The translations under genes were made by a program, and so were the position numbers. Below, one piece after another: positions 20,838 to 22,218 of a DNA stretch of 26,682 bases. Position 1 is the first letter of the stretch. The number at the start of each line of letters is the position of its first letter. The notes under the pieces are model-generated. The model did no database searches. It was given only the letters and a program-made list of their open reading frames with translations, and was not told the DNA's origin. Location of the stretch: IMG/VR virus record IMGVR_UViG_3300045557_000057, positions 1 to 26,682 of that record; one strand, 5' to 3'. Source of the DNA: a virus. Lineage: Duplodnaviria; Caudoviricetes.

Positions 20838-21908
20838 ATGGCAGAATTAGATTTAGGCTCAGTAATCGGGCCACAGGGGCCAATAGGGCCAAAGGGAGAT
20901 ACAGGAGCCCAAGGGCCTACGGGGGCCACAGGCGCAACCGGCGCAAAGGGAGATACTGGTCAGCGCGGGAGCCTCTGGTATAACGGAACCGGAATAACCG
21001 GCACAAGTACAACCGCCACAATATTTAGCGGATCAGGAGTGACAGCAGCCCTTGTGAACGATTATTACCAAAATACGGGCACAGGAGCAGATAGGGGCCG
21101 GGTATATCGGTGTACGGTAGCCGGTGCTGCCACGGTGGCTAAATGGGTGTATGCGGGTACTAATTTAGGGCCACAGGGAGAGCAGGGAATACAGGGAGAA
21201 ACAGGAGCTACCGGCCCAAAGGGTGATAAAGGAGATACAGGAGCCACAGGCGCTACTGGTCCGAAAGGTGATAAAGGAGATAAGGGTGATACTGGAGCAA
21301 CCGGTCCAGCTGGGCCTAACGCTGCAAATCTAATTACTGCTACAGACGTTCAAGGGTTAGTTGGTGCAGCCGGGGACAATTCCACAGTGCAGCTGCTAAT
21401 CAATGCGATTGCTGACAAGGTGGCTAATAAGTTACTGCTAAAAACTGATGTGATTAATCAGTTCTTGAACGATTCAAGCAGGGCAGCCAGTGCAGCATTG
21501 GCCTACTCACTTAAGCAAACCACAGATACACTAAATAGCAATTTGAATGATATAAAAAACGTATCTTATTCAGTTGGTAGTGGCATTGATGCCAATAGTT
21601 GCTCCGGTGGTATTATATATCTTCTCCAAAAGAATTCCCTGTGTCAAATCCGGGGGTCTATAACCATCGTTGCTGCTTTGAATAACGACTCAAGTAGGTC
21701 AATATTTTCCCCAGAATTTAATGGTCAGGCTTATTCACCTATACCCGATGGAATGCTATTGACTTATCACGTAAGATACCAAGATATTACCGGTTACTTA
21801 TCTTATGATGCGACTACAAAAACATTTAAGCTGTTTAACTATAGCGGGAAAACAATAGCAGCTAATTCCTTCATCGAAATATGGGGCAATTATATTTCAC
21901 ATTTTTAA
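20838..21908 (+). CDS. collagen-like tail fibre (probable receptor-binding protein) expressing tip variant A
   Basis: Two Gly-X-Y blocks, coiled region ending TLNSNL, then a 120-aa beta-rich tip. Confidence 0.8.
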
Positions 21909-22173
21909 ATGATCATTTATACGATTGTGGTTGTTCCTGTACTGGTATCTTCAAACGTACCGTCTGGCTTGACAGTGAACGTAAAATTGCTCAAATACAA
22001 ATGGTTATCTCTTATACCAAGTCTTGTAGCGGTACCTGTGGCAAAATTGCGTGATGTAATATATGTTCCGGTCGCATCATTATAGATAGTCGATCTTAAT
22101 GTATTTTCGCTATTAATTAAACTCATAGACTTCTGTAATCCACTACCAAACAGTCCTACTAAATTGCTATTTA
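21532..22173. mobile_element. putative invertible tail-fibre tip cassette
   Basis: Inverted repeat TAAATAGCAATTT at 21532-21544 (+) and 22161-22173 (-), extending to 16/18 bp. Both copies read L-N-S-N-L in frame into convergent ORFs. Confidence 0.78.
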
Positions 22174-22174
22174 A
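21917..22174 (-). CDS. silent alternative tail-fibre C-terminus (tip variant B, 80 aa after LNSNL)
   Basis: Open frame from the inverted repeat to the stop at 21917; shares TLNSNL with the fibre; no credible RBS/start of its own. Confidence 0.72.
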   Translation of the reverse strand, partial: LNSNLVGLFGSGLQKSMSLINSENTLRSTIYNDATGTYITSRNFATGTATRLGIRDNHLYLSNFTFTVKPDGTFEDTSTGTTTIV

Positions 22175-22218
22175 CGTAGAACCGGAGTTGTCCGCAAACA
22201 GCAGAAAGAGAAGAAAAT

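Follow-up and report, generated by a model that had tools for sequence, protein, structure and literature searches.

The window analyzed here is the whole 26,682-nt stretch of an IMG/VR record (Table 1), and its 26.7 kb carry genes for terminase, capsid, tape measure, tail, holin, and lysin. Its relatives bear the names Hungatella sp. and Lacrimispora sp., which places the host within the Lachnospiraceae, and the locus belongs to a prophage of that family. Two 33-nt direct copies, 85% alike, lie in the noncoding stretch preceding the small terminase (2359-2435), and beyond the lysin the minus strand carries a gene with an ATP-dependent DNA ligase domain, together with a small HTH gene (24510-26497). 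Directly upstream of the fibre gene is a second collagen-containing tail protein (19896-20825), which is without the start site S described below.

Table 1. Features of the window and of its tail-fibre tip cassette
Feature	Position	Strand	Remarks
Window, IMG/VR record IMGVR_UViG_3300045557_000057	1-26,682		Duplodnaviria; Caudoviricetes
XerD-like tyrosine recombinase	1..1008	+	Candidate enzyme at a distance (inferred role)
Constant shaft, collagen-like tail-fibre/receptor-binding protein	20838..21545	+	236 codons, ending T-L-N-S-N-L
Start site S, AAATAGCAATTT	21533..21544	+	Within the fibre gene
Expressed tip A	21546..21908	+	120 aa + stop; fold predicted to be a receptor-binding head
Palindromic end site P, AAATGATCATTT	21907..21918	.	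14-bp palindrome 21906-21919 including both stop codons
Silent tip B	21917..22159	-	80 aa + stop; head to head with tip A
Outer start site S, inverted	22161..22172	-

Two head-to-head tips on a collagen-like shaft

The fibre has a Collagen match in Pfam and tail-fibre matches in PHROG, bearing out an earlier note on this DNA that had described a constant collagen shaft. The repeats at 21527-21544 (+) and 22178-22161 (-) are identical at 16 of 18 bases, with a perfect part of 13 bp (21532-21544 / 22173-22161), and both translate to T-L-N-S-N-L in the fibre frame, giving a product of 356 aa (236 + 120) with tip A or 316 aa (236 + 80) with tip B; re-reading of the sequence confirmed these repeats, frames, and lengths as the earlier note had given them. 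The two exact copies of S are the only ones in the window, a third row at two mismatches in the scan being the same site on the other strand and not an extra copy. The inverted repeat alone is not significant, because 57 of 200 dinucleotide shuffles contain a perfect 13-bp inverted pair 100-1000 bp apart and two further 13-bp inverted pairs, which look like chance, exist in the window; the case for a cassette is carried by the relatives. Contigs of run X1 placed on the window diverge at 21544, with the shaft extending to 21544 and the tip A stretch spanning 21530-21920, and the same shaft end recurs in 15 proteins, each with a visibly different tip (15 tips, judged by eye).

The silent tip had been described as stop-free and without a start of its own. 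An open frame of 84 codons is matched in 18 of 2000 local shuffles, which makes it less readily explained by chance than the repeat. There is no annotated-style start at the site; an ATG is present 17 codons into the frame, and the open reading frame lister also extends the frame from an upstream TTG. No excess of promoters or terminators was detected near the cassette. Homologs of tip B (73-74%) terminate two longer fibre proteins (P0001 and P0002), one of them a collagen fibre with the same N-terminus as the window fibre, which disposes of the objection that relatives of this tip are never fibre C-termini. The flank of the outer S is common to other prophages carrying other silent tips, and tip A itself occurs behind other shafts and, elsewhere, silent.

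Tip A is predicted to be a receptor-binding head like those of lactococcal phages. Folded as a single sequence it reaches a pLDDT of only 33.6, and with a 23-row alignment of distant tips a pLDDT of 84; the latter model matches TP901-1 by Foldseek (E 0.006), and the top five rows in VIA are all lactococcal receptor-binding protein (RBP) heads, the best Z scores of 8.3 and 8.0 being near the tool's middling level. Across the bIL170, TP901-1, and p2 heads, Z is 7.5-8.3 and rmsd 2.7-3.2 with 89-94 aligned residues. This fold comparison covers tip A, tip B having too few relatives to fold. The 110 paired tips collected here fall into 79 families (55% identity). Pfam returned four sub-cutoff matches on 79 tips, one of them Gp53-like_C, matches in the Atlas were unnamed or weak, and PDB sequence profiles gave nothing usable.

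A palindromic end site and the boundaries of shared tips

Three features escaped an early reading of the locus: the palindromic site P, the trading of individual tips from locus to locus, and a recombinase candidate at 1-1008. P lies between the convergent stops of tips A and B and carries stop codons on both strands. Its conservation was assessed in regions fetched for paired or contig-end S sites, a sample selected on S and not on P, which comprises 68 distinct convergent pairs including 58 in which both tips are at least 45 aa (the intact set). The junction carries P with at most two mismatches in 56 of these 58 intact cassettes (31 exact), versus 0 of 10,003 control windows. The start site is conserved as well: among junctions reached by protein search rather than by motif, S is exact at 9 of 11, the remaining two being a variant with the core AGTG. 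Summed across 49 genomes of the genus, the S motif occurs 293 times, versus 54 for a reversed control, and its copies frequently face each other across a few hundred bases as convergent pairs.

The two sites have common outer bases and different cores (AAAT-AGCA-ATTT for S, AAAT-GATC-ATTT for P), such that every tip lies between sites of two classes, similar in their arms and different in their spacers. Conservation extends over only ∼12-14 bp plus weak T positions, there is no 28-bp site with 11-bp XerC/XerD arms, and we know of no resemblance between S or P and host dif-like sites. Such a length is short for a tyrosine-recombinase site and counts against the explanation that we favor below. 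Phage mosaics joined at short boundary sequences are known, and S and P could likewise be boundary sequences for homology-driven recombination by annealing proteins, with no site-specific enzyme involved. We consider this very improbable, despite the shortness of the sites and their scant conserved arm sequence, given that tyrosine recombinases are found inside tip arrays across many phages, that the S core is kept at the DNA level in the junctions above, and that T is kept at -9, -6, and -1 in noncoding outer flanks as it is in coding ones.

Where the same tip is found with different partners, DNA identity stops no more than 2 nt from P in 25 of 28 comparisons; at a limit of 6 nt the count rises to 27, the remaining one being a flank-only match. 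These rows are not independent and represent about eight tip families. At the 5′ end, identity begins at most 13 nt upstream of S in 19 of the 28 comparisons, 25-31 nt inside it in six (mostly at an inner second S), and further upstream in three. Tips also recur within single genomes. One genome (G021) has a 605-bp cassette that is entered by four contigs, two of them carrying unrelated shafts, and another (G042) has a variant of tip A behind three unrelated shafts with three different sequences beyond its P. Eight tip families are seen both on a shaft and silent. Pairs without a shaft make up 23 of the 58 intact cassettes; subtracting five beside a recombinase, one with a broken shaft, and one on a bare contig leaves 16 spare slots, several of which occupy the same syntenic place with different tips. 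Silent tips from spare slots are found on the window's shaft type (P0016 at 98.9%, P0017 at 100%), and on this shaft the tip differs from one sister phage to the next.

The tips thus behave as exchangeable cassettes and not merely as a two-state toggle, since sharing ends at P, tips recur behind unrelated shafts in one genome, and the same tips occur both silent and on fibres. A plain two-state inversion switch, with P merely a shared stop-codon or transcription element, is an improbable account of these patterns: inversion by itself gives a tip no new partner and places no copy of it in another prophage, whereas tips recur within genomes and inter-locus identity stops at P. In its favor are the inverted in-frame S sites, the exact inversion in one relative (G048, see below), and a published precedent in bifidophages, in which section 8 of the relevant paper describes a ∼500-bp two-state inversion without a flanking recombinase (Mavrich et al. 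2018, PMC6109161).

Several cassettes depart from this layout. In three sister phages (L003 6502-7815, L094 2655-3335, L038 2758-3557), the silent tip is replaced by a longer insert between P and a decayed outer S, which in L003 includes an ordinary gene; the silent-tip slot may also accept cargo genes. In two other loci (L029 2406-2678, L068 8277-8612), an inverted S rather than P directly follows the active tip, as if a rare S × P event had removed the partner tip. Two doubtful assemblies were not used: a join of two loci in L012, possibly a chimera formed through a duplicated tip, and a second cassette in L154, which copies the first at 95.6% and might be artefactual. Contig-end sites were ruled out as signs of inversion, being duplicated cassettes.

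Recombinases, inversion, and the proposed exchange

The earlier note had claimed that no invertase adjoins the cassette, and this holds for the immediate surroundings: no recombinase adjoins it, and no serine invertase or resolvase was matched among the neighboring open reading frames scanned (17 proteins in each of two scans, of 77 open reading frames). A XerD-like recombinase gene, ORF 1-1008, is located 20.5 kb upstream. Its product keeps R187, H279, R282, and H305, and its catalytic Tyr is displaced by one residue toward the C-terminus relative to XerD-like rows, a displacement common to its whole clade and L065. In a quick tree, this separate clade comprises 17 rows, none of which has an S within 1.3 kb. 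Of 18 ORF1-type genes in the genus (at least 38% identity), 13 have an S within 35 kb downstream, four are near a contig end, and one, with an in-frame stop, has no S, a co-occurrence confounded by both being prophage parts. Five cassette-bearing genomes gave only a host-like Xer match (30-31%), which, like the displaced Tyr and the lack of an S within 1.3 kb in the clade, counts against the favored explanation.

Closer to the tips are array recombinases 30-38% identical to ORF 1-1008 (one at 34%), located within four-tip arrays that have S variants (cores AGTG, AGTA, GCTG, and AGCA) and in many cases the same P. Recombinases flank cassettes in L013, L015, L057, L065, L073, and L127-L140. In L073 (2437-4868) and L134 (2782/4599), the recombinase has copies of one tip or tip pair on either side of it, suggesting exchange between sister copies. 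A tip array with its recombinase also occupies a fixed non-tail locus, behind a 39-aa mini-shaft and between penicillin-binding-like and RHS-like genes (L057, L064, L073, L076, L153, L156), the array having four tips or being collapsed to two. Clostridium scindens phage phiCs5676-1 (OR574845.1) encodes an integrase and, separately, a distal recombinase of the sister clade. Its two head-to-head tips (L189 3879-5557) meet at a 14-bp palindrome different from P and are annotated as hypothetical proteins only; the outer site was not found, and a transposase lies there.

Flipping was seen only in a recombinase-adjacent relative. The two ends of the G048 contig overlap over ∼19 kb at 99.8-99.9% identity, indicating that one recombinase-adjacent locus was assembled twice, and the first cassette is exactly inverted between its S sites in the two copies, with a different tip on the shaft. 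For recombinase-less loci there were six whole-cassette repeats among 73, four with a shared flank, and none of these four was flipped, a small sample in which contigs hide rare forms. The L011 cassette, spanned by single contigs at a depth of about 290-420, showed no inversion joint, contigs again dropping rare forms.

For the window itself, the earlier note had proposed a two-state tip switch, probably driven by a tyrosine recombinase. The cassette is real and tyrosine recombinases lie among the same cassettes in relatives, but toggling at the window locus was not seen. Tip B at 80% DNA identity or more is silent in every copy seen, and the flipped shaft-tip B arrangement was absent at high identity from IMG/VR, metagenome contigs, GTDB (by pattern), and the protein collection, as well as from 401 genomes of the family and 49 of the genus. 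None of the public runs contains as much as half of the words of the locus, and four runs compared with the locus gave no strand-change joint, the one raw-read run among them contributing a single read; runs with a small share were excluded as habitat evidence.

We consider it rather probable that the locus is a two-slot tip cassette whose tips are traded within the bounds set by S and P, with a XerD-like tyrosine recombinase likely both flipping and swapping them. Recombination between the two inverted S sites in cis would flip the tip pair, at the window locus as in G048, with a possible change of host range. Crossovers at both S and P, one at each site, would swap a single tip between two molecules, and P × P recombination would swap partners or remove the recombinase module. 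Since the two sites have common outer bases but different cores, each would normally recombine with its own class only, following the spacer rules of Xer/dif systems. Because S is in frame, any tip reads on from any shaft. The best candidate for the enzyme is ORF 1-1008, which would act from a distance.

Two-tip loci such as this one could instead be frozen remnants of a four-tip shufflon whose recombinase was deleted between direct repeats, changing only when a phage with an array recombinase visits, with ORF 1-1008 having another job. We regard this as unlikely, because most silent tips are still open (58 of 68 pairs), sister phages bear different tips on the same shaft, and the distal recombinase is kept at 83-96% identity in six prophage copies of the genus. 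It would nevertheless account for one chromosomal locus that has four tips and a recombinase in L057, L064, and L073 and only two tips and no recombinase in L076, for the absence of flips in two-tip loci, for cassettes in genomes without a family recombinase, and for the ORF1 clade never being adjacent to sites.

If tips are indeed traded between S and P, Lachnospiraceae prophages may more generally possess a natural recombinase-mediated cassette exchange, in which a XerD-like enzyme of the phage, encoded 20 kb away, draws on a genome-wide, dispersed archive of heads, each bounded by two non-compatible sites, loads them onto any shaft, and trades them among co-resident prophages; we put this forward tentatively, with a little less than even confidence. 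In this way the temperate phages of a major anaerobe family could renew their host recognition with no need for long homology or a retroelement, moving whole receptor heads as standard parts between unrelated fibres, and the small start-less open reading frames of these prophages would represent a tip archive. With two 12-bp motifs and one enzyme, the system would also make a very compact tool for cassette exchange. A further warning for genome reading is that assemblies are interrupted at the S and P sites.

Comparison with known systems

The principle of the simple toggle is already published, and the two-site exchange is the valuable part. Adhesin C-termini are switched by inversion in the R64 shufflon (Rci/sfx), the segments of which also carry two head-to-head ends, and we know of no conserved second site at the head-to-head junction there. 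Gin, Cin, and Min are serine recombinases, of which none was found among the neighboring open reading frames scanned at the window cassette. Those of Mu, P1, and p15B, respectively, switch tail-fibre C-termini by inversion (summarized in PMC6109161), and tail-fibre inversions are listed generally in two other papers (PMC9881135, PMC5903667). A literature search covering main texts, with few subscription papers among them, found no paper on a two-site tip cassette in the Lachnospiraceae.

The Rin shufflon of Bifidobacterium prophages shuffles tips by a tyrosine recombinase (Mavrich et al. 2018, PMC6109161), and a Rin-type system is also described in Eggerthella (PMC8778435). As in Rin, a short asymmetric in-frame repeat joins variable C-termini to a constant RBP N-terminus at the window cassette, and the likeness extends to the armless XerD-like tyrosine recombinase of Rin and to its tips, which resemble the TP901-1 RBP head (PMC6109161). 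Unlike Rin, which has one site class (PMC6109161), the window system has a second, palindromic class closing each tip; window-type tips occur in head-to-head pairs, with spare pairs elsewhere in the prophage and single tips common to co-resident prophages. The window cassette has two tips only, without the flanking recombinase gene and several tandem variable genes of Rin.

Short directional motifs also bound cassettes giving alternative fibre ends in the BV01-like phage shufflon of Phocaeicola vulgatus, for which a preprint reports extra cassettes in wider populations (PMC13596623). That system differs in having an adjacent recombinase, three cassettes, one 10-bp motif, activity in reads, and a Bacteroidota host (PMC13596623).

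The closest mechanism to the proposed tip exchange is that of the dif modules (pdif) of Acinetobacter, which lie between sites of different spacer, with inversion between like sites. Replacement of a single module is modeled there in two steps, a cointegrate first forming at one class of spacer and then being resolved at the second class (PMC13141974). Dif modules, as described there, use host XerCD and 28-bp sites with two 11-bp arms, and comprise whole genes on plasmids (PMC13141974), whereas the cassettes described here have 12-14-bp motifs, gene fragments fused in frame, and a presumed phage-encoded enzyme.
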